A stretch of DNA of 20,000 bases, from assembly GCA_001724265.1 (NCBI GenBank), contig MEDY01000112.1, positions 54,215 through 74,214 of the forward strand. The letters run 5' to 3'. Below are positions 123 through 20,000 of this stretch, piece by piece. Both the position numbers and the translations under genes were made by a program. The first letter of the stretch is position 1; each line of letters opens with the position of its first letter. Source of the stretch: Rhizaria sp. SCN 62-66 (Eukaryota). Below the pieces are notes generated by a model, which made no database searches, had not been told where the DNA came from, and saw only the letters and a list, made by a program, of their open reading frames with translations.

Positions 123-1088
123 GTGGCCGCGCAGGGCGAGGTCCCCGTGGGCATGCGGGCCCCCAAGTCTGCAGTCGCGGGCCCCGCCGTCACGGGCGAG
201 TTCAACCAGGCCCAGATCGTTGCCGCGCGCCTGCGCAAGATCTGGCCCGGCGGCGACGTCGGTGTCCTCTCTTCTGATGAGGTTTCCGACGGCTCCGAGG
301 ACGCCAACGAGGTTCTGTCGCGCCTCAACAACAAGTACGGCGTGTACGACCGCTACAACATGGCTGTCCACACCAAGAACCGCCGCGACCTCCCCCCCGT
401 GGACGACACCGTGACCGAGTCCGGCCTGCCCCCGGAGGCGGAGGACTACATGGGCGTCTACAAGGCGGCCAACAAGCTCAAGTTCGACGCCCGCGTCGAC
501 AACCCCGAGGCGCTGGAGTCGATGCTCGGCTCGCTCTGGGGCAAGCGCTACCACTACCTCGACAAGGAGCAGCGCGAGGACTCTGCGCGCAACGACAACA
601 CCATCGTCATGCGTGCTACGCCCGCCTCGAACGAGCGCCTGTCGCAGGGCATCTCCACTGACGGCTCCGTCGACAAGTTCGTCGCCATGGCCGACGACAA
701 GGCCGACATCGAGGCCGCCGTCGCTGAGGCCCAGCTCCACGACCTGCCCTCCAACGCACCCCCCGCGCCGTTCAAGCCCTCCACGGTGTGGTACGGCCCC
801 CGCGTTGCCGGTTCCGCGCTCGACGTGACCTCGGCGAAGCTGCCCGCCAACGTCGGCGAGCGCGTGCCCAACGACCCGCCGAAGCCGCCCGTGCCGTCCT
901 TCGTGATCCCTGACTTCCACAACTCGTCCGCGCTGCCCGACAACGAGGCGCCCGTGACGATCATCCAGACGATCCGCGTGACGCCCGAGTCCAAGGGCAA
1001 CGGCATCAAGAAGAGCGAGAAGGTCTTCACCCCCATCATGGCCCAGCCCGTCATCAACCCCAAGCCCGCCTACGTCGTCGGCAACTAA
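123..1088 (+). CDS. Terminal exon of an uncharacterised protein (5' exons lie upstream of the window)
   Basis: Bases 1-122 look like an intron 3' end (CT-rich tract, CTAAC at 68-72, CTAAT at 101-105, CGCAG acceptor ending at 122). An open frame with strong C/G third-position bias follows from 123 to TAA at 1086-1088, then GC content drops. No family recognised. Confidence 0.8.
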   Translation: MAAQGEVPVGMRAPKSAVAGPAVTGEFNQAQIVAARLRKIWPGGDVGVLSSDEVSDGSEDANEVLSRLNNKYGVYDRYNMAVHTKNRRDLPPVDDTVTESGLPPEAEDYMGVYKAANKLKFDARVDNPEALESMLGSLWGKRYHYLDKEQREDSARNDNTIVMRATPASNERLSQGISTDGSVDKFVAMADDKADIEAAVAEAQLHDLPSNAPPAPFKPSTVWYGPRVAGSALDVTSAKLPANVGERVPNDPPKPPVPSFVIPDFHNSSALPDNEAPVTIIQTIRVTPESKGNGIKKSEKVFTPIMAQPVINPKPAYVVGN

Positions 1089-1769: not shown

Positions 1770-3845
1770 ATGCATGCCAGTAAAGCGCGTCTGCGCGCTG
1801 CCGTGGATCGCGTGCCGCTCAACCGTGTTGTTCCCCGTATTGTTGAGAAGGTACGTTCCCCTCACCCACACCAGTCTCCAGCCCCTCACCGTTTGCCGCT
1901 TTGCCGCGCATTAAACCCTGCTCTGAGGGTGCTTAAGAACTGTTTTTTATTTGCTCAGATAGAACACATCTATTTATACGCCGCATGTCGGTTTTATCTC
2001 TATACTACGTCCGTTTACCTATGTATTATGAGCCTCAAAATGACCGCGAGCTCACCCACACCGCTTTGACTTTGACTTTCTCTCTCCGCACAGTGGAGCA
2101 CCCAGCTCCTCGAGCGCGCCCGTGCGGGCGACGCCGACGCGATGCTGAGCGTGGCTGAGCTTCAGTTCCAGCCCGAGGGCTGGGGCAAGATCGCCTACAA
2201 CCCGACCGAGGGGGAGCGCTGGGCCGAGCGCTCGAGCCTGTCTGGCAACAAGAACGCCGCGCAGAGTCTGCGCGAGATCCGCCTGACGAAGGAGATTGTG
2301 CAGCAGAAGACTGAGCAGATTCACCGCAAGATCCTTAACGACCGCTTCGCTAGCGACAACATCGAGGAGCCCTTCGTTGGTCCCAAGAAGATCGCTAAGA
2401 GTCTGATGAAGCTCAAGAAGAAGCTCGCCGCTGCCGGCTACACCCCGCGCGACGTCATCTGGCGCGAGGCCGTCGCCAACGCAATGCGGCGCCGCGACCG
2501 GCAGCTGCTGCGCGAGACGTCGGAGCAGTACATGATCGAGTCCAACTCGGACCCGGCCGACTCGTCCATCTACTACGAGACTCCCGTTCTGCAGTTCCCG
2601 CTCAACATGCAAGCCCCCGCGAGCCTGGACGGCATGCAGCGCGCCATGAAGGCCGCGCTCGACGGTCACCTCCAGCACACGGCCTACGACACTGTTCCGC
2701 GCCCGCTTGTGGAGCTCTTCTCCGCCGTCGACGAGGCGCCGCTCGAGAACCACTCGCCGATGGTAGAGCACGACGGCGTCTTCGTCCAGGCGCAGTACAT
2801 GCCTAAGATGTCTGCGGCCGAGATCATGCGCGCCCAGCGCGAGGGTCTGGCACCCGCCGCCGTGGACCCCTCTGCGCAGACAGCCGCGGGCGCGCTCGCG
2901 GGCCCCGTGCTGCTGCCGCCCGCGCCGCTTTCGGCGCCCGCGTTGCCGCTGCCCGCCATCATGGAGCGCTACCCCGCCATCGTCGCCGCCTACGGCGTGC
3001 GCGCGCTCGCCGGCAAGACGCGCGCGCAGCTCGACGAGCTGGCAGACGTGCTCCGCGCGAACAACGACGACGACGACGCGGCGGCCGAGGGCGCCGACGC
3101 CGACGAGACGAGTGGTCTGCGTTTCACGCCGCGCGAGAAGGACCGCATCGCCGAGGCTGAGCGGCTCGAGGAGAAGATCATGGCGCTGCCCGAGGTGCGC
3201 GCCCGGTTTGCGCGCTTCGACGAGCAGACGGGCCGCAGCGCGCTGGGTGACGACGAGGCCCGTTCTCGCCGCGCCGAAGCGCGCGAGGCGATGCGCTGGG
3301 AGATCCTGCGCGCGATGCTCACCGACGATGAGATGCGGTTGGTGCTTACCAAGCCCATTGCCGAGACGGCCGTGTACCTCGAGGCGACGATCGCCGAGGA
3401 GAACGCGCTGGACGAGGACGAGAACTCGACGCTCTTGGACCAGATGGCGCCGCTGGATCACATCGAGCGCGAGTACACGCTGCGCTGGCCCTACGCCGAG
3501 ACGGGCGAGTCGGCGCAGAACGAGTTCCGCAACACGCTTGGCGACTCGGCGGACCGCCACGAGATGGATCTCACGGTGTACGACGAGCGCTTCGCGCCCA
3601 CCGAGGACATCGACGTGATGCAGGGCTCTGTGGCCGACGAGGACGCCTTCGCGGGCGGCATCAACGGCGGCGCGATCGACCCCAACGCCGACGTCATGAC
3701 CCGCGCCTCGATGGCCAGCCGCGCTGGCGCCAACGGCGTCGGCACCCGCGCCGAGTGGCGCAAGCGCGTCGCCTCGGCCGCCAACGAGCGCGCCAACGCG
3801 GCGGTCACCGGCAGCGCCGCCGCGGGCCCCGCAGAGGTCATCTAA
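1770..3845 (+). CDS. Two-exon gene (1770-1850, 2094-3845), about 610 aa, with an N-terminal Sel1-like (TPR-type) repeat and a long uncharacterised acidic/Ala-rich extension
   Basis: ATG at 1770; exon 1 ends AAG|GTACGT at 1850/1851; acceptor ...TCTCTCCGCACAG| at 2093; the phase-0 join is in frame with the 2142-3845 ORF. The spliced N-terminus RVPLNRVVPRIVEK-WSTQLLERARAGDADAMLSVAELQFQPEGWGKIAYNPTEGERWAERSSLSGNKNA fits a Sel1-like pattern (A..GD..A........G.G.......G..W...A...G). Stop is TAA. Confidence 0.8.
1851..2093 (+). other. Spliceosomal intron (243 nt, phase 0)
   Basis: GTACGT donor, AT-richer interior, TTTGAC branch-like motifs, pyrimidine tract and CAG acceptor; removal restores a continuous frame. 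Confidence 0.8.
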
Positions 3846-4431
3846 GTCAGCTGCAGACAGTCGCGCTCACAGACGCGCTCGCGCCAATGCGTATGCGTGC
3901 GTGTGCCCGCACTGCCCGTTTATGTGAACGCGCTGTGAGTGAGAGATTGACCATTCGCAGTGTAGATTTAGTGTTGGTAGTGGTTTAGGTTGTTAGGGTT
4001 GAGCTACATTTTTTACTTAGTACAACGTATAAGATAACAGTAGCACTTCCCTCGAGCACAACGGAGTACATCATCCTACCATGACAGAGCATTGCAGCGC
4101 AGAGTTAGTTCGTTTTATTCCAAACTCAAATGAGACATTCAACAAGCAAAAAACATATCTTACTAATTAAAAGAAACAACAAAAAGAACGTCGTTGCGTT
4201 CAATATAACAATAGACACAAAATATTTATTTGTCATTGCATCACCACACTCTTATGCCGCATTGAACGAAGTACTAGGTCATATAAAGCTCTAGTGTATT
4301 GTTGATCGTGAGAGTTGTAAATATATGGCCATCGAGTTCGTTGGGTGTCATGACCTCAGATGGGCACGTCCGATTTTGTGATTAAGCAGTGAATGGGGTT
4401 CAATCTAGACGAGTCTGCCTGTACAATGCAC

Positions 4432-5907
4432 TCACTTGCCGCGCCAGCCATAGAGGGCCTCCGCGTTGAAGTCATCGTCATCGTCACTGTCGCTGTCGCC
4501 GGCATTTTTGCCGCTGCCCGGCTGCTGCGGCTTCGCTTTCCTGTCCTCCTCCTCCTCAATAGCAGCAGCAGCAGCAGCAGCAGCAGCGGCGGCGGATGCG
4601 GCGGAGGCTGACGCAGACTCGAGCGCACGCTTCGCCCGCCCGCCCGCGGCGGCGACGGCGCCGCGCAGCCTCGCTAGCCCCTGCGCGCGCTCCTCCTCCT
4701 CGCGCGCCTCCTGCGTCGCGCGCGTCGCCGCCACCGTCGCCGCCGCCAGCCCGCTCGGCGCGACTGCAGCCCACACCGCCGGGGCCGGAGCCGGTGCTGA
4801 CGCGGGCGCCGCTGCAGCCACAGCAGAAGGGGCGGAGGCGGGGGGATTCTTGCCGTCGCTGCTCTTGGCGTCGTTGGCGGCAAGGGCGAGGTCGAACGCA
4901 CGCAGGTCGCTGTCCTCATCCTCCTCCTCCTCCGCAGCGGCGGCAGCGGCTGAGTTAGCTCTGGCAGCGGCGGAGCCGGCCATGACGGCGGCGGCGGCGG
5001 CGGTGGCGGCGGCAAGCGCGGCGGCGTGCGCGGCCGCCTCGGCCTCGGCGTCGGCCTCATCGCCCCACAGCGGCCGCAGCTGCGCAGCCCCGGTCTCGGC
5101 GGACTTGCTGCGGTTGTTGCTGCTGCTGCTGCTGCTGCTGTTGGGAGAGGCTGCGGCAGGGTTCTTGGAGTCTCGGCTGTTCTTGCTGCTGTTGTTGGGT
5201 ACGTTTGTGGTATCATCTGTGGCGGCAATCATGACAACATCGCCGTCGGAGTTAAGCCGCCACGTGTTCCCGTCTTCGTCCACCAGCTCCACAATCTCGT
5301 CCTCATTCGAAATGCCGTCGGTGGAAGTACTGTCAGACTGGCCCTGGCTCTGGCTCTGGTTTTGACTCCGGCGCGCGGACTGGCGTGCGGCGCGGCGGCG
5401 TGCGAGTTCATGATCGATGTAATCATCGGGGTCGCCTAACCAGTCGTCAGGAACCTCGATGTCATCGCCGTCCTCGTCGTCGTCGCCGTCGTCATCATTG
5501 GCAGCTGTGGAGCCAGAGCTCGATGTGGCGGAGGTTGCTGTTGCGGGGGAAGCGATATTATCGTCGTCGTCGCTGTCGCTGTCGGCGTAGGCCGCAAAGG
5601 CGGAGATGGGAGCTGCGGGTGCAGACACATGAGCAGGAGCAGCAACAGCAGCCTTTAGAGGTGCAGGTACTGGAGCTGCAGCACGGGCGCTGCTACTAGA
5701 AGCGGACGCAGCGGGCGCGCTTGTTCCGGCGGCAGCTGCCTTCTTCTGCGCAAGCAGCGCCTGCAGCGCGGCGATTTTCTACCTGTGCATGGCGCCCGCG
5801 ACGTGTGCGGGCCAGGCGGCGTCGTCGCGCAGGGCGAGCTTGCACACCACGCACGTCAGCTGGCCCGCGTCTGTGTAGCGCGCGAGCTTGTCCGTCACGC
5901 CGGGCAT
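4432..5907 (-). CDS. ZNF830: ZNF830/CCDC16-like zinc-finger protein, about 491 aa, with an in-frame TAG at codon 43 (5779-5781)
   Basis: Manual translation from ATG 5907 gives MPGVTDKLARYTDAGQLTCVVCKLALRDDAAWPAHVAGAMHR*KIAALQALLAQKK. This matches the ZNF830 N-terminal finger pattern (A.Y...GQL.C..C........W..H..G..H..K...L). The frame continues into ORF 4432..5628 and ends in an acidic tract plus WRGK, like the family's C-terminal acidic-W-R-x-K tail. Stop is TGA. The exact start is uncertain: a CAG just upstream could be an acceptor. Confidence 0.8.
4561..4595. repeat. (AGC)n then (GGC)n trinucleotide tract encoding poly-Ala in the ZNF830-like gene
   Basis: About nine AGC units followed by GGC units, read directly from the sequence. 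Confidence 0.85.
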
Positions 5908-6194
5908 TAGGCTGCGCGGGTACGTTGAGACAACGGGGTAATTGGGGCGCAAGGCGGCGTCTTGTTGGAGTAGATAAGGGCTGTGACAGAGGAATCAAGA
6001 GCATGGGCGTATAACGGTTAGACACGGATGAGTTTGGACAGAACTTGGACCCGACGATTCACGGCATACACAGCTTCTAAAAGAGCATAATAACAATATA
6101 GTATATATTATATCGTGATGAATATGTGATTGTGACGGGTTCTCAAATGACGGATGTATTGTGGTGCTATGTATCGCGTAAGTCTCGAGCGCGC

Positions 6195-6665
6195 TCAGCG
6201 GCGGGCGTCCTCCTCGCCGGCCGGCGTGGTCGAGTACCGGTGGTCGGGCTGCTGGATGGGCTCATATCGCATGCCCTGGTGCTGCGGCGGCGCCAGCGAC
6301 GCGGCGGGCGACGCGCCGTAGGATCGCTGCGTGGGCTGCTGGTACTGCTGCTGCGGCGACAGCGCGGGGGCGGCTGCGGGGGCGGTGTAAGGCTGGCCCG
6401 GCACGTGCGGCGGCGGGGGCTGCGCGGGGTAGCCGGGCGGCACGTAGCCGTCGCGGTACACCGTCACCACGTTTTGCTGCGGGGGGGAAGGACAAGGGCG
6501 TGGAAAGAGAAAGAGTGAGGGGACGGAGAGGGCGGGGCAGCGGCGCGGAGGAGCGGGGTCGGGGTTCGAGAAGAGTCGTACCTTGGGGCGAAGAATCATG
6601 AAGGGGATCGTCACGCCGATGGCGAGGACGAAGAATTTACCAATGTCACTAAGCACACGACTCAT
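6195..6665 (-). CDS. Small protein (about 121 aa), exons 6665-6582 and 6476-6195: N-terminal hydrophobic helix plus Pro/Gln/Tyr-rich tail
   Basis: ATG at 6665 in ACGAACATG context, the same as at the 1770 gene; hydrophobic segment FFVLAIGVTIPFMIL; donor AAG|GTACGA at 6581; pyrimidine-rich 105-nt intron ending CAG at 6477; GC3-biased exon 2; stop TGA. Confidence 0.7.
   Translation of the reverse strand: MSRVLSDIGKFFVLAIGVTIPFMILRPKVRLFSNPDPAPPRRCPALSVPSLFLFPRPCPSPPQQNVVTVYRDGYVPPGYPAQPPPPHVPGQPYTAPAAAPALSPQQQYQQPTQRSYGASPAASLAPPQHQGMRYEPIQQPDHRYSTTPAGEEDARR
6477..6581 (-). other. Spliceosomal intron (105 nt, multiple of 3, stop-free)
   Basis: GTACGA donor, C/T-rich body on the minus strand, CAG acceptor. 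Confidence 0.65.
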
Positions 6666-7023
6666 GTTCGTAGCTGAATGCACAGATATATCACTTGTAT
6701 CACGACAGGTCGAACCATCAGCCTAGCTTGTCACTCCGCCGGTTCGATCCATCGTTCTGCTTCATGCATCGAACCAGTTTGTGGTCAGATCACATCCAAC
6801 TTAAAAACTCATTTAAAACAGTCTCTAAACCAGATCAGAGCTCGAAGTATAATAATAAAGTAACTATTGTATTTAAATGTCGTTTTAAAAGCCGCACGAG
6901 GCCCTCCTCTGATCATTGTCGGATAGCTTCGTTCACACGCGTAAAGCTCGCTGATCGAGCTTGCTAATCGAGTCTCGAGAACACATTGCACAGCTGTCGC
7001 CCTGCCGCCGTCACCCTAGGCCC

Positions 7024-10000
7024 TCACACGTCTGTGTAGAGCGAGCTGGCAAAGGGCAGCCCCCTGCGCACGGCGGCCTCGGCCTGCTCGAACTTGGCCA
7101 TCAGCGCCTCGTTGCCAACCGTGCGCGCGGCGTCGACGAGCTGCAGCAACAGCTCCGCGAGGCGCCGCAGCAGGCGCACGATGGAGCCCGGGTGCGCGTC
7201 AGTCATGTTGCACACGTCGACGAACGCGGCGCCGCGCGCCCACGCGAGCACGGGCGCCGCCATGCCGTGCCGGAAGCCAGCCAGGTAGGCCGGCTTGTCC
7301 ACGCGTTGCCCACACTCGGTTGACAAATCGGCGACGCGCTCGACGATGGCGCGCAGGCGCGCGACGGGCGGCGCCAGCTCGGCGGGCAGCGGGTCGCGGT
7401 CGCTGCTCGAGCGGTCCGTCTCGAACAGGACCGTGAGCAGCGCCGCCACCTGAGCAGGCTCGTACGCCGCGAACGAGTTGTCGAACACAAGCTCCGTCAG
7501 GACCAACTCGTCGACGGCCTCGACGTGCGCGGCGAAGCGACCCAGCACGGTCAGCATCCCGTCGGCCGTGGCGTAGCCCAGGCGCCGCAGCACGCGCAGG
7601 CGCGCCGCGAGCTCGGCCGTGAACACGTCCACCAGCTCGCCACCGCCATCGCTGCTGCTGCTGCTGGCTGAGTCGCCAGATCCCGAAGCCGGGCCAGTGA
7701 GGGCGGCGTGAGCGAGAGGGCTCGACAGCGCGGCCTGCAGCGCCGCCGCGGACCCCGCCGGACCAGAGCTCGGGGCAGTGGAGCTGGAGCTAGAGGAGCC
7801 GGCTGCGAAGCGCGCGCGCTGCTGCGCGGTGATCTGCGTGGTTTGGTTGACGCCGAAGACGCCCGACTGCGCGGCCTCGGTCAGCGCGGCCGCGCGGCGC
7901 AGCGCGTGTGCCAGCGAGCCCGCGGTCGCGGCCGAGACGAGGCCATGCGCGGCCGCCAGCGCGTCCAGCGTGCTCACGGTCACTGCACTGCTGCTGCTGC
8001 TGCTACTGCTCACGGTCACTGAGGTGGCGGCTGTGGGCGCGGGCAGCTGCACGTCTGTCTCACCGGCATTGGCAGCCGCACCGTCATCGGTAGCACGAAC
8101 GCTCATGTTCATGGGGGACTTCTTGGCGTCGTTCTGCTCTGCGTGTGCCTCGGCAGACTCGACACCCGTGGTCCCACAAGCATCAGCATCAGCGGCAGCT
8201 TGTGCATTAGCATCCGCGCTGTCAGCCTCGCGGAAACGCTTCTCCCTCGACGCAACAGCAGCCACAACACTAGCGGTATCACTAGCATCATGCGCACTCG
8301 CATTGACACGCGAGTCAACCGCTGTTGCAGTCGCCGGCGTCTTGCTGAGAGCAGGCACGCGCACAGTCGCAAACGGCTCAGCCAGCCCCTTGCCCTTAGC
8401 CCCGCTCCCGCCCTCAGCCCCAGCCCCGGCCAGTGCGCCGACCAGCGCGCCCCCACTCTGCAGCGTCACTCGGCCGTGTCCAGCAAGCGCGGCGCGGACC
8501 TTGCGCGCGAGCGGGACCTCCCTGGCCGCCGCTACAGCCGCGGCCGCGCGCGCGAGGGCCGCGAGGTTGAACCCGCGCGGGTCGACGCCCATATCATCGA
8601 AGGGCGAGAGCAGCGGCAGGGCGCCGGGCAGCCCCGCGGCGGCGTGCGCGCGGTGCGCCAGCGCCACAGCCTCGAACACAGCGGCCTGTTCGGCGGCGCC
8701 GCGGACGTCCGCGGGCAGCGCCACGCGCACGGCCGAGACCTTGTGCAGCATCGGCAGCGACACGCGGACGACGTCGTAACGCACCGAGGAGGCCTGCGCC
8801 GACTGCGCGCGCGCCTGCAGCTGCGACAGACTCAACCCTGACACCGCCGCATCAGCGTTGGCGATTGCATTAACGGCAGCGCCAGTGTTTGCAGTGGCGT
8901 GGAACGCAGAGGCTGCGAGCCGCTGCAGCCAGCCGGGCTCGACCGGGAGCGGCACTGTCACCGCGGGCGGCGCGGGGCCCGCGTCGAGCTGCTGACTCGA
9001 GGGTGGCGGCGCGACGGTGATCGTACCAGCCACGGGCACAAGCACGTCGACGTCGTAGGTCCAGGGCTCGAAGCGCTTCCAGACGGTCAGCACCACGGCC
9101 CAGCCGAAGTCGCGGCCGGTGTGCGCGAGCAATGTCGCCGCGTCCGCCGCCGACCGCGTGGAAGCCACGTTCGAGCCAGTACCAGCGCTGTTGCCGCGCA
9201 CTGCGCGAGCAGACACAGACGATGTTGCATCATGTTGTGTCGAGGGGACGTCGCCAGAGTTGTCAGTATTGCTGCCGTCCTCCTCCTCATCATCTTCGTC
9301 AACGTCGCTGTCACTGAAGCTGTTTGCGGCGGCGCCAGCGGTGGCGGCGCGGCCGGCCTGCGCGCGCCAGAGCTCAGGCGCCGTGGCCGAGGGCCGCAGC
9401 ATGCGCCACTTGCCGCCCATCACGGCCGCCACCTCCTCGCGCATGCCGCGCCGCCGCCGGTCCCCGCCGCCGCCATTGGCGCCGCCGGTCAAGGCTGCGT
9501 CCTAGCCGAGCGCGAGACCCAGCCCGATGCTGGCGCTGGCGGCCGAGGCCAGGTCGGCCACCGCGGCGGCCGCGGCGTCGGCGTCGGCCGACGCGCCCGC
9601 AGGCACCGCCGCTGCGGCCGCTGCGGCGGCGGCGACGGCGGCGGCGACGGAGAATGCGCGCGGCGGCGCGGGGGGGCCGAAAGAGTCTAGCACTGGCTCT
9701 AGCCCCCAGCCGTCGCAGCCCGCCCAGCCGGCAGCCTCGGCGCGCGCGCGGCGAGACCGCTGCGCCGCCGACAGGACCGTGCGCGGCGGCGCCGACGGGG
9801 GACCGGGCGCGGAAATTAAGCCGCCTGCGCCCGAGACAGCGGTGCCGGCGGACGGTGACAAAAGTGAGCCGCCCGACTGCGGCGCCGCGGCCTCGGCGGC
9901 AGCGGGAGGAGAGCTAGAGCCCGCAGTGACTGCGGTGGGGCTGGGCAGCGGACTGCCCTCGGTCGCAGCAGCGGCGGCGGCGGGCGAGCTGCTCGCGGTA

Positions 10001-13000
10001 AGGATGCTGTTAGTGACGACCGCGGCGGGCGCGGCGGCCGTGACCGCGTCCTCTGCGGCAACCAGCAGCATCTCCGCGGCGGGCCCCGCGCACGCGGTGG
10101 CGCTCTGTTGCGCGGCGCGCGCGAGCAGCGTGGCCGCCGCGCCGCCCGCGCCCGCGCCCGCGGGGTCGCGCACGTATACGACACGGCCGGGGGTCAGGAA
10201 GCGCAGCACGTGCGAGGGCCGCTGCGCCGCCGCGCGCACCGCCGCCGCCGCGGGCAGCGCGGAGGCCAGCAGCGCGGCGTACACTGAGAGGTCGGCCAGC
10301 GGCAGTGCGGCGGCGGCAGCGGCGGCCGCCGACGGGCCAGTCGCAGTGCTCGGCGAGGTGTTGGCAATAGCAGTTGTGGCGGCGGTGGCGGCGGAGAGCT
10401 GGGAGAGGAAAACACTCGCGGTCGCGGTCAGCTCTGCATCAGCCACTGTGTCCGACAAAGCACTCTCAGTCACGGACGCAAGGACAGCAGCATCAGCAGC
10501 AGTAACGGCGTTCTCCTCGTTGTCGCTATCATTCATGGCCGCAACCGTCGCCGGCGCCGGCGCCGGCGCAGTTGCAGACGCGGACACGGGCGCAGTGGCC
10601 TCGGCGGCGGCGAAGGCGGCGGGCGCGTGGGACCGCAGCAGCGCGCGCAGGGCGACGACGCGGCGCGCTTTGGCCAGCGCGCGGCGGTACGCGCGGCGGT
10701 GTGCGCGCGCACTCGGCGCGCTCTCAGCGGCAGCAGCACCTCCGCTGTCAGTGGGGCCGTCAGTTTCCTTCGTCATGACATGAGCTTCTTCTTCGTCGTC
10801 GTCGTCGTCATTGCTCTCAACAGCATCGAACCAGCCCTCGTCGTCGTCGCCGTGACCGCTCTTGTTCCCGCCACTTGCGGCCTCAGACTGCAGCAGAGCG
10901 AGTGCGAGCGCCTCCTCCTCGGCCGCCGCCGCGCCACCCTCGGCCACCGCCCAGTCCAACCCCGCACCGCCGCCGGCCCGGGCCCCCGCGCCGTCGCCCG
11001 CATCTCCGCCGCCGTCGCCGCCGCGCGCGGCGCCCTGGGCCTCGAAGGCGCGGCGGTAGCGGAACTGCGCCAGTGAGCTGCGGATCACCGCGTCCGTCCC
11101 CAGCAGCGCGTCGCCGCGGGCCAACAGCGAGAGGATCATCGCGTAGGAGAGACGGAAGCGCGACTCGAGCGGCTCAGCGGGCCCGAGGATCATGTCGTGC
11201 GCCTGCTCCGGCTCCAGCTCGTCGCCCTCCTGCATCAGGATCACGCACACGCCCACGGCGTCCTTGTTACGACGGCCCGCGCGGCCCGACATTTGCGTGT
11301 ACTCGCCGGCGTTGAGCAGCCGGCGGGTCTTGCCGTCGAACTTGCGCAGCGCCGCGAAAACGACCGTGCGCGCGGGCATGTTGACGCCCATGGCGAAGGT
11401 CTCGGTCGCGAACAGAACCTTGATCAGCCCCTCCTGGAAGAGCAGCTCGACCAGCTCTTTGATCACCGGCAGCAGCCCCGAGTGGTGGACGCCTACGCCC
11501 GCCCGCAACAGCGGCAGCATCGCGCGCACCTGCAGCAGCCCGCGGTCCCCAGGCTCGAGCCGCGCAACGGCAGCCTCGAACGTCGCCTCCACGGCCTCGG
11601 CCTCCTCGGCGGAGTTCAGCTGCAGCCCCGCGCAGGCGAGCGCGTGGGCCTCGCACTCGCGGCGCGCGAACGAGAAGACGATCATCGGCAGCCAGTCGTG
11701 CGCGCGCGCCAGCGCAACCACGCGCTTGACGTCGCTCGCGGCCCGCGCCGCCGCGCGCTGCCGGGCCGCGAACACGCCTCCGCCGACAGGGACTGGGGCC
11801 GCAGCCGCGCCGCCCAGTCCGGCGAGTCCGGTTCCGCTGGCGGCCTTGGCGGCGTCGAGCGCGGCGGCGAGGTGACGCCTGTGGAAACGGCCCTTCTGGT
11901 CGACCAGCAAGTAGAGCGAGGAGCCGCCGGGGGGCAGGACGAAATGCGCGAGCGGAGTCGGGCGGTAACTCGTGGTCACGGTGTGGCACGGCCGGCGCTT
12001 GACCGCGCAGACCCAGTCTGCGAACTCCTCGGCGTTAGACACGGTGGCGGAGAGAAAGACGAGCCCGACGCGCGCGGGCAGCAGGATGATGGTCTCCTCC
12101 CACACGACGCCGCGCTCACGGTCGCGCATGTAGTGAACCTCGTCGAACACCACGTGCGACGTGAACGCGATCGACTCGGCGCCGCGGACTAAGAGGTTGC
12201 GCAGGATCTCGGTCGTCATCACTACCACGGGGGCGTCGGGCGCGAGCGTGACGTCGCCCGTCATGAGCCCCACCTCGATGCCGGGGAAACGCTCCTTCAT
12301 CTCGCCGAACTTCTGGTTCGACAGAGCCTTGATCGGCGACGTGTATACAACGCGCTGCCCGCGCGCCAGCGCCAGCGCGACCGCGTACTCGGCGACGACG
12401 GTCTTGCCCGCCGAGGTGTGCGCGGCGACCATCAAGTGGTCCCCGCGCTCCAGGACCGCGACGGAACGCTTCTGGAACACGTCCAGGTCGAACGGGTACT
12501 CTCGGGCCATGTGTTCCGCCGCCGGGAACGAAAGACAGGCCGCAACGGCCTCCGCGGCGGCCGCGGGGGGTGCCGAGGCCGGCAGCACCGCCAGCGCGGC
12601 CTCGGCGGCGGCCAGCGCGGCGGGCGCGGCGGCGGGTAGCGTGCCGCTGGCCGGGGAAGGCACCGCGGTGTCCAAACGCACTGCCGGCCGATTCGGCAGC
12701 GACACATAGTGGGTGCACCGCGAGCGGTCGTGGTCGCGGCCCTGCGCGCTGGGGATGAGGAACTTGCCCTTGGCCACCGAGGACGCGGACACGGGCTCGT
12801 AGCTCTCGCTGTCGCTGCTGTCGCTGAGGTCAGCGCTCCCGTCGTTGTTGTCGTTGTTGCCGCGCTCATTAGCATTGTTGGCGTCATTGGACGCGTCGTT
12901 GCTGGCGTTGAATGCAACTGCAGCAGATGCGGAGTGCGTGGTTGGGCTAAACTCGTCGGTCATGTCGGTCGCCGGCGCATCAGCAGAAGCAGGCACTTCG

Positions 13001-13122
13001 GGCGTTGATGAGGAGACAGCGACTGGCGCCGGGGCAGTGGCGGGCGCAGCGGACGCGGAGTCCGCCGCAACACCGGGCGCGACGGCGCCATCTTGGGCCA
13101 CCGAAGGCGGAATATCACTCAT
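7024..13122 (-). CDS. MTR4: MTR4 (SKIV2L2/DOB1) Ski2-like DExH RNA helicase, about 2032 aa as one frame, with an in-frame TAG at codon 1207 (9502-9504) and large low-complexity insertions
   Basis: Motifs: YPFDLDVFQ, AHTSAGKT, YTSPIKALSNQK, GLMTGDV, VMTTEILR, DEVHYMRDRERGVVWEETIILLP, FLSAT, YRPTPL, GVGVHHSGLLP, LFATETFAMGVNMPA, QMSGRAGRR. KOW pieces FLTPGRVV and DFGWAVV lie on either side of the TAG, and the C-terminal DSHCT domain ends RRGLPFASSLY. ORFs 9502..13128 and 7024..9492 share a frame and are separated only by the TAG. Final stop is TGA. Confidence 0.92.
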
Positions 13123-13828
13123 ACACAAATTAATGTGGGCACTCTTGCTTAGTCAATCTACTCTTGGATCAATAGACAAGATAGTAATGCTCTGTCGAGG
13201 CCAATAGTGAGAGGAAGCAGGGCAAGTGGAAATGTGCGTGAGAACATAAATTAAGGAAGAGTTTGAAAGGCTTAATGGAAAATATAGACAACACAATTAA
13301 AAACAAAAAGATAAAGTACCACAGAAAAACTAAATTCAACAACTAAAAAACTATTGATGAGCAGATGATCGCAATCAGCGATGTGGTGTGAGAAAGTTGG
13401 ACTGAGATCACAAGACACAAATCAGTGCAACAAGAGAGCGGTCGTCAGAGCGAATAGTGGCATTACAGAGTTAGTATGGAGGTGGATTGTGGAGAAAATA
13501 GATTAAGGTGCTTTATTATATGAGCAAGTTCCGGTCACGGCCGCCCCGGCTCGCTGCCCCACGCGCCCGCCGCTGTCTCTACCGCTCCCCGCGTCACTCG
13601 CGCCAAGTGAAGGCGCGTCGCAGAGAGAGTAAGGAGATTAGCTAGCGCAGGCGTGTGAGTGCAGCGTCGGCCAAAGGCAGCGAGCCGCGCCGGAACAAAG
13701 AGAATACATAGCGTTATGCCCCCGCCGAAGCGAGCGCAGTCGAAAAAGAAGAAGAAGGAGAAGAGTTCAGAATTCACATCACGTCGCCTGTTGTTACAGA
13801 GCGTTATATAGAGTTATATACAGCGCGC

Positions 13829-14989
13829 TTAGTGGGCGGGGGAGACGGAGTTGATGAGCTCGGTGTGGCGCACCGTCTTGGGGGGCTCACCGTGGTAGAT
13901 GTGCTCGAACAGCTCGCCGACGACGGGCTGCGGGGACGCCTTGGCCTTCTCGACGGCGACGTCGACCTGGCCCTTGACCTCCTTGTCGATGGCCTTGAGG
14001 TCCGCCGCGGTCGCGAAGCCGGCCTCGAGGATGCGGTTCTTGCAGTTGTCAATGCAATCGCGCTGGGCGCGCATCGACGCCACCTCGTCGCGGGAGCGGT
14101 ACGAGAGGCCGGGGTCGGACATCGAGTGACCGTGGTAGCGGTAGGTCGAGGCCTCGACGAAGATCGGGCCCTTTCCGGAGCGGCAGTGGTCGATGGCGAA
14201 CTGGAAGCCGGCCTTGCAGGCGAGGACGTCCATGCCGTCAATCCAGATGCCGGGCACGTAGTCGCCGCGGGTGTAGAAGTCGGCCGACGCGGCGTGGCGC
14301 GCCGTCGAGGTGCCCATGGCGTAGTTGTTGTTCTCGCAGAGGAAGATGAGGGGCAGCTTCCACATCGCGGCCATGTTGGCCGCCTCGAAGACCTGGCCCT
14401 GGTTGGCCGCGCCGTCGCCGTAGGCCGCCACGGCGACGCCGCCGTCACCGCGGAACTTGTGGGCGAAGGCGAGACCGGCGCCGAGGGGGACCTGAGCGCC
14501 GACGATGCCGTTGCCGCCGTAGAAGCCGCCCTCCTTGTGGTACATGTGCATGGAGCCGCCCTTGCCGCGCGAGCAGCCCGAGGCGCGGCCCAGGAGCTCG
14601 GCGAACATCGACTCGAGCGAGTCGCCGCGGGAGATCTGGTGGCAGTGGTCGCGGTAGGCCGTGATGACGGAGTCGGTGCGGCGGAGACCAGCCTCCATAC
14701 CGGTGACGATGGCCTCCTGGCCGTCGTAGAGGTGGCAGAAGCCGCGGATGAGGCGCTCCTTGTACAGCGTGTCCGAGACGATCTCGAGACGGCGGTAGAG
14801 AACCATCTCACGGTAGAACTTGAGCATCTCGTCCTTAGTAGTGGTCACGGTGTTGGCGGGAAGGTTGTCGAGCTTGTGGCCCTTGAAGTCGCGACCGACC
14901 TTGAACGTCGCCGTGTTGGACGACATCATGCGAGCACCGATGGGCGCCTTCGAAAGCGCCTTCGAAAGGCGAAGAGTCTTACTGAGCAT
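13829..14989 (-). CDS. PDHA1: Mitochondrial pyruvate dehydrogenase E1 alpha subunit (386 aa, intronless)
   Basis: IRGFCHLYDGQEA, GKGGSMH, FYGGNGIVGAQVPLG, TPP-binding motif GDGAANQGQ...ENN, phosphorylation loop TYRYHGHSMSDPG.SYR. The basic, acid-free N-terminus MLSKTLRLSKALSKAPIGARMMSS resembles a mitochondrial presequence. Stop is TAA. Confidence 0.97.
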   Translation of the reverse strand: MLSKTLRLSKALSKAPIGARMMSSNTATFKVGRDFKGHKLDNLPANTVTTTKDEMLKFYREMVLYRRLEIVSDTLYKERLIRGFCHLYDGQEAIVTGMEAGLRRTDSVITAYRDHCHQISRGDSLESMFAELLGRASGCSRGKGGSMHMYHKEGGFYGGNGIVGAQVPLGAGLAFAHKFRGDGGVAVAAYGDGAANQGQVFEAANMAAMWKLPLIFLCENNNYAMGTSTARHAASADFYTRGDYVPGIWIDGMDVLACKAGFQFAIDHCRSGKGPIFVEASTYRYHGHSMSDPGLSYRSRDEVASMRAQRDCIDNCKNRILEAGFATAADLKAIDKEVKGQVDVAVEKAKASPQPVVGELFEHIYHGEPPKTVRHTELINSVSPAH

Positions 14990-15740: not shown

Positions 15741-16845
15741 ATGGTATATGTCATGCGTAAAGTTAAGAAATGAGGTGGCTCAGAGGGGCGCTGCTCACGG
15801 TCATGCGACTTAATTTCGAGGGCGGACCGAGCGGAGCCTAAGTGCGCCCTCGTCCTCTCGGCCGCGCCCCTGCCAGGAGCAAAGACCGTCTTGTGTGGCC
15901 CCGGAACTCGTATTGTTGCTGTTGGCGTATTATCACAAGCCTGTTTACTGCGTGGCACATCTATTCTCGTTATTGCTGGAACAACTGGCGTTTGTGGCGG
16001 GCCTATCCGGACGCTCTTGAGTCGGCCCACTTCGGTCTTGAGTGTCCCGGTGTGGGGCCTCACCGCCGCCGACCCGCTCCCTCCCCTGCCGCGCCCATCC
16101 CCCCGCGTCCGCGTCTCTGCATATGCTCACCGCTCGTTTCATGTGCTCTTGCTCTTGCATTTTCTCCCCGCTACAGATGAAGCAGAACTTCGTTGAGACC
16201 GGCCGCGTCGCCCTCATCAACTACGGCCCCGACTATGGCAAGTGGGTTGTCGTCCTCGACATCATTGACCAGTCCCGCGTACGTCCTTCGCCCTCCTCCT
16301 GCGTTCCCTTTTTCCCTTCTCTAAACAACGCGCTGCTGTAGTGCATCTCCTGCAGCTCCCCACTCGCTATTCGAACGCGGTTTGCGCTTGTGGCAGAGGC
16401 GGTTGGTCCAACTTCTGCCCCGCAAGCCGTACAGCCCACTGCTCTACCCCCGCATCGCTCCGCTCTCCGTCATCATGCGCGGCTCTCAAAACGCATTCTC
16501 ACAGCACTCCTCTCTTCTTTTCTCTCTGTCTCTTGTCCTATTCGTCTTTAGGTCCTCGCCGACGGCTCTGCCAACGGTGTCAAGCGCCAGGCCATCCCCA
16601 CCCGCTGGCTCTCGCTGACCAACATCAAGATCGCTGTCCCCCGCACCATCGGCGTCGACAAGATCAACAAGTACTTCCAGATCAGCAAGGTCGCTGAGAA
16701 GGTTGCTGCTACCGCCTGGGGCAAGCGCGTCGCTGCCCAGAAGGTCCGTGCTAACCTCACCGACTTCGACCGCTTCAAGGTCATGCTCCTCAAGAAGCAG
16801 AAGGCTGCCATCGTCAAGAAGGCCACCAAGTCCGTCAAGGCGTAA
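15741..16845 (+). CDS. RPL14: 60S ribosomal protein eL14, about 132 aa; exons 15741-15743 (ATG only, tentative), 16177-16278, 16552-16845
   Basis: FVETGRVALINYGPDYGKWVVVLDIIDQSR|VLADG...KRQAIP...W...R..LTDFDRFKVM are eL14 signatures. Intron 2 is GTACGT...TTTAG (16279-16551). An acceptor CTACAG lies directly before ATG 16177, and ATG|GTATAT at 15741 is a plausible first coding exon. Stop is TAA. Confidence 0.95.
15744..16176 (+). other. Probable RPL14 intron 1 (433 nt; donor tentative)
   Basis: The acceptor is clear (pyrimidine tract plus CTACAG at 16171-16176). The donor GTATAT after the ATG at the end of an AT-rich promoter-like region is inferred. Confidence 0.55.
16279..16551 (+). other. 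RPL14 intron 2 (273 nt, phase 0)
   Basis: GTACGT donor, long CT tract, TTTAG acceptor; removal joins DQSR to VLADG as expected for eL14. Confidence 0.92.
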
Positions 16846-17310: not shown

Positions 17311-20000
17311 ATGTCGTTCGCCGACCTGCCCGACGCGATGGACATGGCGGACGCCGCGGACGCCTTCAGCCCAGTCGAGGGCGCGCAACTGCTCCGCGAC
17401 CTGCGCCTGCGCTGGGACCCCTGCCAGGTCCTCGACGACGACGCCGACGCCGACTTCGACTGGGAGCCTTTCACGGCGCTGCTGACGTTCCACCGCGTTG
17501 ACGACGGCGTTGTCATCGACAAAGGCTCGCAGGCCCACGCGCTGTACTTCATCCTCGAGGGCGTGGTCCGCGTCATGGTCGATGACGTGTCGATCGCCGA
17601 AGTCCCCGCCGGCACCGTACTGGGCGCGCAGGGGCTGTTTGAGACGGTGCGTGAGAAGCCCAACAAGCTCGTTGCGCACGAAATCACGACTTTCGCGCGG
17701 CTCGACTACTTGCAGCTGCGTGCATTCGCGGGCATGTACCCCGAGAGCTACGGCAAGCTCGTCAACATCCTCGCCACGCACGCCGTCGAGGGCTTCAAGA
17801 AGAACATCAAGGACCGCACGCGGCACGGGCTGCCGATTGTGGAGGACCGCCCCAAGGGCATGGCGGCGCTGGGCTTTGCCGTCGCCGCTGTCGCCATGCG
17901 CAAGAACAACCGCAAGCTCATCGACGCTGCCAACTCGATGGCCAACTCGGCCAACGCTAACTTCGCCGCCGCGGCCGCCGCGGCTGCCGCGGGCAGCGCA
18001 GGCGCGGGTGGCGCGGCGGGCGGCGTGGACGTGGGGGCCCGCAGCGACGCTGTCAAGCACGCCATCGGTGACTGTGTCGGCCCGGCCTCGGCGCTCGAAG
18101 CGCCGAAACGCACCAAGATGCAGTCCAAGGTGGCGGAGAACATTCACAACACACACGCGCTGGCCCGCGCGCGCGACAATGACAAGGTCTCGAAGGCGCA
18201 GTACGACGAGCTCTCGGCGAAGCACAGCGTGTTGTTGGCCACGGTCAACGGCACGATGCAGATCAACGGCTCGCTGCGCGCGGAGCTGCAGCAGACGCGA
18301 GAGGCGCGCGACAAGCTGCGCACCGAGAACGATCGCGTGCACGCCGACAAGCGCGGTGTGCAGGCGCAGGTGACGGCGCTGAAGCAGCAGATCGAGCGGT
18401 TGCGCGCTGAGGCGGCTGAGATGTCGACGGCGCTGGCGCAGGAGTCGACCGTGGCCGCGTCGCTGCGCCTGCAGCTGAGCATGGGCGACGCGCGTTCGCA
18501 GGAGGACCTTGACGCCGTCACGCAGCAGATGCTGCGCGACACAATGGAGTGGCGCGTCAAGGCGCAGCAGCTCGAGTCGGAGCTTCTGGCCGCGCGTGCC
18601 GCCGCCGAGGAGGACGCCGCGGCCGCGCGCGCGGTGATCGAGGCGCGCACGGCCGAGCTGGCTGTTATGGCGCGACGGTACTTCACGCTGCAGCGCGCAT
18701 CGCAGGGCGCGATCGCGGCGTGGCAAACGCAGTGCGATGACCACGCGCGCGCCGCCGCCGAGGCCCGTGCGGACGCAGACGCCACCCGCAAGGCGCGGCG
18801 CGCCGTGCAGAGCGCCAAGGAGGACGCCGACGAGCTCGTGCGGCGCCTCGAAGCGGCGCTCGAGGCGCGCGGCGCGGAGCTGGAGGAGGCGCGCGTGAGC
18901 GGCCACCGCGCGCGCGCTCAGCGGGCCCGCGTCGAGCGGCAGATGGACCTGGTGGCCAAGCGCGTTGGCGTTCAGCTAGTCGTCATGTTCGGCAAGGTCT
19001 ACCTCGCCAAGCGCCGCGTCGCTGCCGTTGCAGCGGCCTTATGCACGTTGCTCGACGCGCTGGGCCCGGCGCTGCGCGTCGGCGAGGCCGAGCTCGCTAC
19101 GGCGCGACTCCGGCTCGGCCAGGATAAGCTCCAGCAGCAGCAACAGCAGCAGGGGCAGCAGAAGCAGGCCCCAGGTGGCGGTCTCGGTGGCCGCGGCGGC
19201 CCCCCGGCCCTGATGTTGCCCGGCGGTGGCGGAGGCGGCGCGGGCGCGCTGCCGCTGAGCGCGCTGCTGGACGAGCCGGGCCCCGGGTTGCGCGTGTACG
19301 ACGCCCGCGAGTGCGCGCTCGTGCGCGAGCGGTTGCGCGCGGTCCGCGAGAACAGGCGGCTTGTCTTTAAGTCGGACGCCGACGGCGCGGACATCGCGGC
19401 TGGCTTCCACCCGCACTCGACGGCGTCCGCGGCTGGGGGCAAGGGCGACGCGGGCGGCGGCAAGGACAAGGACAAGGAGCACAAGGACGGTGGCAAGGAC
19501 CCCGAGGAGCACGACTACACGGACCCCTTGCCGACTCTGCTGCAGGTTGTGCGCGACGTCTCCGACGGCGTCTCGATGGCCGGGCTGGGGCTCGCGCGCC
19601 TGCTCGCCGTGCGCGACGCCGACCGGTCCCTCTTCTCGCACGCCGTCGACGGGCTGCTGGGGCCCGGCGAGCGCGGACACCTGGCCGGCGGGCACAACGC
19701 CTACGCCGCGGCGGTCCGCAGCATCCAGGACAACCGCGAGCTGCAGGTGCAGGTGCGCCGCCTCGGCGAGGACAATACGCTGCTACGCTCGCACCTCACG
19801 GCCATCACGCGCGGCTACTACGCCGGCGGCGCGGCGCCCCCCGCGGGCGCCGGCGCCGTCGCACTCATCGAGGACGTGCTCGCGCGCCAGCAGCAGGCCG
19901 CCGCCGCCGCCGCCGCCGCCGCAGGCGACGCGCCGGGCGGCGCCGCACTGGCGGGGGGCGCCGCGGCGGCCGTGGGCGCCGCGGCCATGGGCGCGAGCGC
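17311..20000 (+). CDS. Large protein, 3' incomplete (>890 aa): N-terminal cyclic-nucleotide-binding-like domain, coiled coil, Gly/Ala/Gln-rich segments
   Basis: Absent from the ORF track because the frame has no stop before the window ends. ATG 17311 gives MSFADLPDAMDMAD... then VIDKGSQAHALYFILEGVVRVMVDDVSIAEVPAGTVLG, a CAP/cNMP beta-barrel pattern. A heptad-like E/Q/R/A/L-rich stretch spans about 18150-18960. Strong GC3 bias throughout. Confidence 0.85.
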   Translation, partial: MSFADLPDAMDMADAADAFSPVEGAQLLRDLRLRWDPCQVLDDDADADFDWEPFTALLTFHRVDDGVVIDKGSQAHALYFILEGVVRVMVDDVSIAEVPAGTVLGAQGLFETVREKPNKLVAHEITTFARLDYLQLRAFAGMYPESYGKLVNILATHAVEGFKKNIKDRTRHGLPIVEDRPKGMAALGFAVAAVAMRKNNRKLIDAANSMANSANANFAAAAAAAAAGSAGAGGAAGGVDVGARSDAVKHAIGDCVGPASALEAPKRTKMQSKVAENIHNTHALARARDNDKVSKAQYDELSAKHSVLLATVNGTMQINGSLRAELQQTREARDKLRTENDRVHADKRGVQAQVTALKQQIERLRAEAAEMSTALAQESTVAASLRLQLSMGDARSQEDLDAVTQQMLRDTMEWRVKAQQLESELLAARAAAEEDAAAARAVIEARTAELAVMARRYFTLQRASQGAIAAWQTQCDDHARAAAEARADADATRKARRAVQSAKEDADELVRRLEAALEARGAELEEARVSGHRARAQRARVERQMDLVAKRVGVQLVVMFGKVYLAKRRVAAVAAALCTLLDALGPALRVGEAELATARLRLGQDKLQQQQQQQGQQKQAPGGGLGGRGGPPALMLPGGGGGGAGALPLSALLDEPGPGLRVYDARECALVRERLRAVRENRRLVFKSDADGADIAAGFHPHSTASAAGGKGDAGGGKDKDKEHKDGGKDPEEHDYTDPLPTLLQVVRDVSDGVSMAGLGLARLLAVRDADRSLFSHAVDGLLGPGERGHLAGGHNAYAAAVRSIQDNRELQVQVRRLGEDNTLLRSHLTAITRGYYAGGAAPPAGAGAVALIEDVLARQQQAAAAAAAAAGDAPGGAALAGGAAAAVGAAAMGAS

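Follow-up and report, generated by a model that had tools for sequence, protein, structure and literature searches.

A 20-kb stretch of a GC-rich protist genome (contig MEDY01000112.1 of GenBank assembly GCA_001724265.1, positions 54,215 to 74,214; 20,000 nucleotides, hereafter the window) carries two genes, one resembling the gene for zinc finger protein 830 (ZNF830) and one encoding an RNA helicase of the Mtr4 family, that are each broken once by an in-frame TAG codon and otherwise run on intact. We consider it probable that UAG is a rare sense codon in this organism and that UAA and UGA are its stops, a reading that rests on two codons. The narrower reading, in which UAG would specify glutamate (Glu) with UAA and UGA as the sole terminators of a GC-rich, probably rhizarian protist, is put forward as a tentative possibility. 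Decoding would require that ribosomes insert an amino acid at UAG by way of a UAG-reading transfer RNA (tRNA), the candidates being a tRNA with a CUA anticodon, derived from tRNA-Glu or from the glutamine (Gln) tRNA, or an efficient near-cognate tRNA, and that recognition of UAG by the release factor eRF1 has been lost or weakened. The two genes and their TAG codons are located as follows (position 1 is the first letter of the window).

4432 to 5907, minus strand: ZNF830-like gene, 491 codons including the TAG, with its TGA stop at 4432-4434
5779 to 5781, minus strand: first in-frame TAG (TAG1), codon 43 of the ZNF830-like gene, in the context MHR-TAG-KIAALQ
7024 to 13122, minus strand: Mtr4-family (Ski2-like) RNA helicase gene, 2,032 codons from an ATG at 13122, with its TGA stop at 7024-7026
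9502 to 9504, minus strand: second in-frame TAG (TAG2), codon 1209 of the helicase in the frame 7024-13128, in the context LGLALG-TAG-DAALTGG

In-frame TAG codons and their reading frames

Across 4,814 annotated codons (seven genes in eight coding segments, with a small gene at 6195-6683 left out of the count) the in-frame stops comprised two TAG, no TAA and no TGA codons. TAG makes up 0.04% of codons (2/4,814), or about one per 2,400. An earlier reading of this DNA, made from the sequence alone (the sequence-only reading), had claimed that each gene holds a single TAG and no other interruption; that count was reproduced, and in-frame TAA and TGA, at zero each against two TAG, were not as common as TAG in the window. 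Downstream of TAG1 the gene's own frame contained no stops in 448 codons, compared with 4 and 20 in the other two frames, and downstream of TAG2 there were none in 825 codons, compared with 18 and 27. Therefore, both downstream parts are coding sequence and not chance open reading frames (ORFs). The GC content of third codon positions (GC3) was 0.8-1.0 in the same frame on either side of both TAG codons, with the periodicity unbroken. Within the ZNF830-like gene, codons 73-92 (5630-5690) form an Ala/Pro-rich segment with a GC3 of only 0.1-0.2, compared with 0.6-1.0 in the rest of the gene.

Seven termination codons are visible in the window: TAA in four genes (g1, g2, PDHA1 and eL14) and TGA in three (the ZNF830-like gene, the small gene and the helicase). 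None is TAG, as had been claimed, which taken alone is weak support for reassignment. Both exons of eL14 (RPL14) and the whole of PDHA1 were likewise free of TAG, in agreement with the earlier account. Codon usage at first positions runs strongly toward C (TTG 26 vs CTG 189; AGG 8 vs CGG 43), and CAG occurs 138 times.

These counts bear on the possibility that UAG is mainly a stop codon and that both genes are expressed through leaky or programmed near-cognate readthrough, giving an ambiguous code and a reduced yield of full-length protein. Two TAG codons in 4,814 is a far lower usage than TTG/CTG and AGG/CGG would lead one to expect of a normal synonym, the lack of TAG among seven terminators is not significant alone, and a tRNA scan of the 20-kb window returned zero genes, hence no suppressor tRNA within it. 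Against readthrough, the immediate contexts of the two codons have nothing in common (AGG-TAG-AAA vs GGC-TAG-GAC), and both proteins, the Mtr4-type helicase and ZNF830, have housekeeping roles, for which sub-stoichiometric expression by readthrough would be unusual. Overall, we consider this explanation unlikely.

The residue at TAG1

The 75 N-terminal residues of the ZNF830-like protein, with X in place of the TAG, were used as a phmmer query and matched 272 proteins at E <= 1e-3, ZNF830-like proteins among them. The family name was obtained from the homologues, of which P0141 is a JGI 'zinc finger protein 830' and P0164 bears the Pfam domains ZNF380_CC and zf-met; a Pfam search of the window protein itself gave no match, and its N-terminus found nothing better than E = 0.38 among PDB sequences. 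The closest full-length orthologue (P0176) was aligned by BLASTP with residues 5-221, straight through TAG1 (E = 2e-29). TAG1 comes directly after the zinc finger's second His (MHR-TAG), and the residues following it (KIAALQ) match the family gap-free. A protein that clustered with the 42-residue fragment ending at TAG1 (P0282) proved to be unrelated.

The alignment column at TAG1 was compiled from 55 of the 150 listed matches, which were single-stretch matches picked by eye as ZNF830-like; proteins with several fingers, the fragment derived from the query itself and two single-stretch matches of short length were left out. Among the resulting 56 homologue alignments the residue was E in 30, Q in 9, D in 6, A in 3, T in 3, N in 2, and H, K and L in one each, such that E, Q or D occurred in 45 of the 56 and neither Trp nor Ser in any. 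Glu is also the residue in both of the closest orthologues, P0176 and P0134. This column suggests Glu first and then Gln as the amino acid at UAG, and would argue against leucine (Leu), from one informative site.

The helicase and TAG2

TAG2 is flanked by essential helicase domains recognized by Pfam, with DEAD (residues 218-368) and Helicase_C (544-620) encoded 5' of it and MTR4_beta-barrel (1336-1517) and DSHCT (1857-2024, E = 2.7e-39) encoded 3' of it. Along with the BLASTP alignment of P0176, the two downstream domains bear out the earlier claim that family homology continues in frame past each TAG. The best named matches were plant DExH10/MTR4 proteins (52-54% identity). When the helicase core was used to scan a metagenome collection that did not include the window's own contig, the best relative was locus L001 at 58% identity, and the L001 orthologue could be aligned in one frame with three parts of the window helicase (core, 51% over 641 columns; arch, 31%; C-terminal 310 residues, 44%). 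TAG2 itself falls within an insert rich in alanine and glycine (Ala/Gly-rich), and because the L001 orthologue has nothing corresponding to helicase residues 993-1324, the residue at TAG2 is not inferable. Similarly, helicase residues 1000-1560 had a single match among 5.8 billion proteins, a 100%-identical fragment ending at TAG2, and no relative aligned there.

At 2,032 codons the helicase gene is roughly twice the usual Mtr4 length (about 1,000 in the named matches). The extra length consists of Ala/Gly/Ser-rich inserts; the L001 orthologue has 1,670 codons. In a helicase tree (FastTree) the window helicase grouped with L001 (support 99) on long branches, and it is possibly paralogous to canonical Mtr4.

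Authenticity of the TAG codons

Logan contigs were compared with window positions 4300-13300. TAG1 was spanned with zero differences by record 4 of run X1 (5151-9477) and by record 10 of run X3 (5151-6456), which come from different studies, and TAG2 was spanned with zero differences by X3 record 13 (9319-9603); no letter differences between contigs and window fell at either TAG among the rows listed. The depth of X1 was about 28-37. The same breaks occur in protein records: the 42-residue fragment ending at TAG1 is held in JGI/IMG, Logan, ENA and MetaClust (three contigs), and two 1,153-residue ENA fragments stop at TAG2. Since these two differ from each other at one residue (D1184E), the break at TAG2 is common to at least two alleles. 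TAG1 and TAG2 are thus real DNA and not one-off assembly errors. The sequence-only reading had raised the question of an assembly error, to which the shared TAG codons in the contigs of two studies and in the protein fragments give an answer. The surroundings of TAG2 are GC-rich and repetitive, and X1 contigs are interrupted at 9477, picking up again at 9535 and 9659, which would favor a sequencing or assembly error; given the agreement between X1 and X3, the fragments ending at both TAG codons in four sets of records, and the depth of X1, an error at both sites is extremely unlikely.

A different possibility is that the DNA is correct but that the message is corrected before translation, either by splicing or by editing. 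All frame-keeping GT...AG intervals over each TAG were therefore considered, 394 for TAG1 and 242 for TAG2, and none of them has a 5' site like the GTACG of the window's two introns; the best candidates also lack the pyrimidine-rich tail of those introns. The best candidates over TAG1 would remove the zinc finger, and the gap-free family alignment directly after TAG1 indicates that nothing is spliced out there. Based on that alignment, the unbroken GC3 periodicity around TAG2 and the lack of any credible intron candidate, splicing of either TAG appears unlikely, a judgment that is weaker for TAG2, where the Ala/Gly-rich insert has no counterpart in L001. Correction could also proceed by editing of UAG, with adenosine-to-inosine (A-to-I) editing yielding UGG or U-to-C editing yielding CAG, or by excision of the codon within a very short or unconventional intron. 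Filamentous fungi are known to carry out stop-loss A-to-I editing of UAG, the base preceding TAG1 completes a GTAG similar to the opening of a 5' splice site, and the contigs of the polyA RNA run X6 and of run X4, among those listed, reach neither TAG. The product of A-to-I editing would be Trp, however, which is found in none of the 56 homologue alignments at TAG1. With the intron evidence added, correction of the message is quite improbable.

Control loci and the relative L001

The helicase core was aligned to 80 metagenomic eukaryote Mtr4 loci, for a total of 38,437 aligned residues, and was free of in-frame stops in 79 of them, the exception being L007 with four. The 73 uninterrupted control Mtr4 ORFs terminated in TAG (29), TGA (23) or TAA (21), although many of the loci are near-identical. 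Contigs of this kind therefore do not commonly show in-frame stops as artefacts, and there is no general avoidance of TAG at gene ends. No synteny was shared between L001 and the window. Prokaryote genome contigs were also scanned for mis-binned eukaryote contigs, and yielded bacterial helicases only (37-48% identity).

Several observations weigh against reading UAG as a sense codon. In about 5,400 codons of L001, the only relative found, no in-frame TAG is convincing: the only two that occur are adjacent, lie 63 codons 5' of the standard start codon of an ORF and were read as 5' untranslated region. The five complete genes of L001 end in TAA (four) or TGA (one). An ordinary Gln synonym would be expected some 20 times beside the 138 CAG codons, compared with the two TAG codons observed. 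The residue can be guessed at one of only two sites, the other lying in an insert of low complexity absent from the nearest orthologue, and at the first site a single base separates TAG from GAG and CAG, which the homologues would carry, such that a nonsense mutation would look identical. The listed strain differences 3' of the TAG codons are five nonsynonymous to one synonymous, which makes no constraint visible, although these differences are very few and lie in disordered regions. As for the DNA and RNA evidence, agreement at the TAG sites refers to the contig differences listed; the other assemblies may stem from the same samples as the window, of which X1 or X3 may even be the source; and the RNA contigs, as noted, fall short of both sites. 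These points do not contradict a UAG codon that is rare, poorly decoded or recently captured, yet they keep readthrough and nonsense mutation alive as explanations.

The second of these would make both TAG codons genuine premature stops, whether they arose by recent nonsense mutation, mark pseudogene alleles or belong to a single haplotype of a polyploid, and the proteins would be truncated. The single substitution separating TAG from the homologues' codons at TAG1, the dispensable look of the insert around TAG2, the five-to-one ratio of strain differences, and the long branch shared by the helicase with L001, consistent with a paralogue of canonical Mtr4, all favor it. It would nevertheless imply that two of eight genes within 20 kb had been hit, each by TAG, with no frameshifts and no further stops in either downstream frame, and that the arch and DSHCT domains were lost from the helicase on truncation. 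Moreover, contigs from two studies and a pair of alleles share the identical breaks, and 79 of the 80 control loci have no in-frame stop at all. We regard nonsense mutation as improbable. As to the earlier claim that UAG is a rare sense codon, its statements about the sequence have held and errors and introns are largely excluded; the reading still has only two codons behind it.

Comparison with known codes

In the cited papers, nuclear codes that split the meanings of UAG and UAA are few: exLh, Iotanema, Scotinosphaera, Protocruzia, some phyllopharyngeans and one oligohymenophorean (PMC11687900). The sainouroid rhizarian exLh reads UAG as Leu and retains UAA and UGA as stops (PMC5304391). As in the window, only UAG occurs in frame, UAA and UGA terminate, and UAG is avoided in ribosomal protein genes (PMC5304391), and the organism of the window may likewise be rhizarian, since the nearest named PDHA1 proteins of the window belong to Paulinella and Bigelowiella. 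In contrast to the 2 in 4,814 codons of the window, UAG is abundant in exLh, with 384 in 71 genes at conserved Leu positions (PMC5304391). Leu of the exLh type is not matched at TAG1 (1/56), although a single site is weak evidence, and Rosculus vilicus, the sole sainouroid genome in print, has 37.7% GC (PMC10770858), whereas the window is very GC-rich; Rosculus was rejected as the source on this ground. Leu is also the meaning of UAG in an uncultivated phyllopharyngean clade (PMC11687900).

UAG is read as Gln, with UAA kept as a stop, in Iotanema spirale, Protocruzia tuzeti, Hartmannula sinica and Trochilia petrani (PMC5304391; PMC11687900). These codes resemble the window in that UAG alone is changed, and Gln is the second most common residue at TAG1 (9/56); in Iotanema spirale UAG is also scarce, as it is here (PMC5304391). 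The lineages concerned are metamonads and ciliates, however, and in the TAG1 column Glu is three times as frequent as Gln and occupies both closest orthologues. Glu, the residue favored at TAG1, is the meaning of UAG in Oligohymenophorea sp. PL0344, where UAA is Lys (PMC10553269; PMC11687900), and of both UAA and UAG (UAR) in Blastocrithidia nonstop (PMC12153298). In these two organisms UAA is also a sense codon, whereas in the window TAA ends four of the seven genes and never occurs in frame. Finally, Scotinosphaera, in which UAG is serine (Ser) and UAA a stop (PMC11687900), shares with the window reading a change confined to UAG outside the ciliates, but its Ser is found in 0 of 56 alignments at TAG1.

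No such case was found for a GC-rich cercozoan or a wastewater eukaryote in the literature on Cercozoa and wastewater eukaryotes, supplementary files lying outside the search. A code table with UAG as Glu and UAA kept as a stop was likewise not found in the portions of the literature searched, where UAG as Glu occurs only with a reassigned UAA. If the reading of UAG as a sense codon is true, the window would represent a new lineage with a code change of known kind; with Glu as the residue and UAA as a stop, the code table itself would be new. Each new lineage with a split code tests the idea that UAG and UAA are mechanistically coupled through eRF1 and wobble pairing. A GC-rich genome in which UAG has nearly gone would also bear on how reassignment begins, by codon capture or through an ambiguous intermediate, and, were UAG read as Glu, reassignment with the codon almost vanished would be direct evidence for codon capture under GC pressure. 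There is also a practical consequence. Standard gene callers split these genes at TAG, as the 42-residue and 1,153-residue fragments in the databases attest, and the annotation of such metagenomic eukaryotes is therefore affected.

Origin and habitat

Public runs containing this stretch are metagenomes from bioreactors, wastewater, activated sludge and microbial fuel cells, in six studies, and the organism is therefore known from metagenomes alone. The window is best explained as nuclear DNA of a protist that is uncultured and poor in introns. The nearest PDHA1 proteins were themselves metagenome sequences (73-79% identity). The nearest named ones were from Paulinella chromatophora (63%), P. 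micropora (64%) and Bigelowiella natans (60%), all of them Cercozoa; matches to the helicase were dominated by plants and were uninformative for taxonomy. PDHA1 tentatively hints at a rhizarian origin and does not amount to a placement. The habitats, the cercozoan nearest named relatives of PDHA1, and the preference for Glu or Gln instead of Leu go beyond the sequence-only reading.

In the helicase core, the X4 and X6 contigs include those of a second, diverged relative. At 11326-11488 all 13 of its listed differences from the window are synonymous third-position changes, and at 12031-12298 nine of the 12 listed are synonymous; a sister species or strain is therefore present in the same kind of sample.

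Other genes and introns of the window

Eight eukaryotic genes with scarce introns, none of them for eRF1, were annotated in the window, in which stretches with a GC content of 0.65-0.77 alternate with AT-richer spacers. GC3 of the coding sequence was 0.74-0.94, typically about 0.9. The features besides the two TAG-containing genes are as follows.

153 to 1088, plus strand: gene g1, 311 codons, no family assignment, stop TAA, GC3 0.94
2142 to 3845, plus strand: gene g2, 567 codons, no family assignment, stop TAA
6195 to 6683, minus strand: small Pro-rich gene with a putative 105-nucleotide intron at 6477-6581, stop TGA
13829 to 14989, minus strand: PDHA1 (pyruvate dehydrogenase E1 alpha), 386 codons, Pfam E1_dh at E = 3.9e-107, no TAG, stop TAA
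16177 to 16845, plus strand: eL14 (RPL14), exons 16177-16278 and 16552-16845, no TAG in the exons, stop TAA
16279 to 16551, plus strand: intron of eL14, 273 nucleotides, GTACGT...TTTAG
17311 to 20000, plus strand: cNMP-binding-like coiled-coil gene running off the window end, 896 codons visible, no in-frame stops

A comparison of g2 with the ESM Atlas gave no match of use. The eL14 intron and the putative small-gene intron both have lengths divisible by three and, read in the frame of the exons, contain neither TAA nor TGA. Two in-frame TAG codons do occur within the eL14 intron, one of these being its 3' splice site. The small-gene intron is only putative because record 25 of the RNA run X6 (6426-6591) is unspliced across it; for the same reason, run X6 may contain DNA or pre-mRNA.

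In-frame TAG codons in control locus L007

The control locus with in-frame stops, L007:2750-4957 (contig Ga0136560_1006356, GC 0.54), belongs to another eukaryote. Its helicase core contains TAG codons at 3845, 4184, 4415 and 4469 and no TAA or TGA. One of the four stands at a column that is Q in all 79 other loci, and another where Q is the most common residue (33/79). Judging from these columns, the L007 organism probably reads UAG as Gln. In the helicase tree the sister of L007 is L021, a locus with a GC content of 0.73 from the same metagenome, and both fall outside the clade of the window. The Mtr4 gene of L021 terminates in TAG at the homologous C-terminus, and the change in L007 would therefore be recent.

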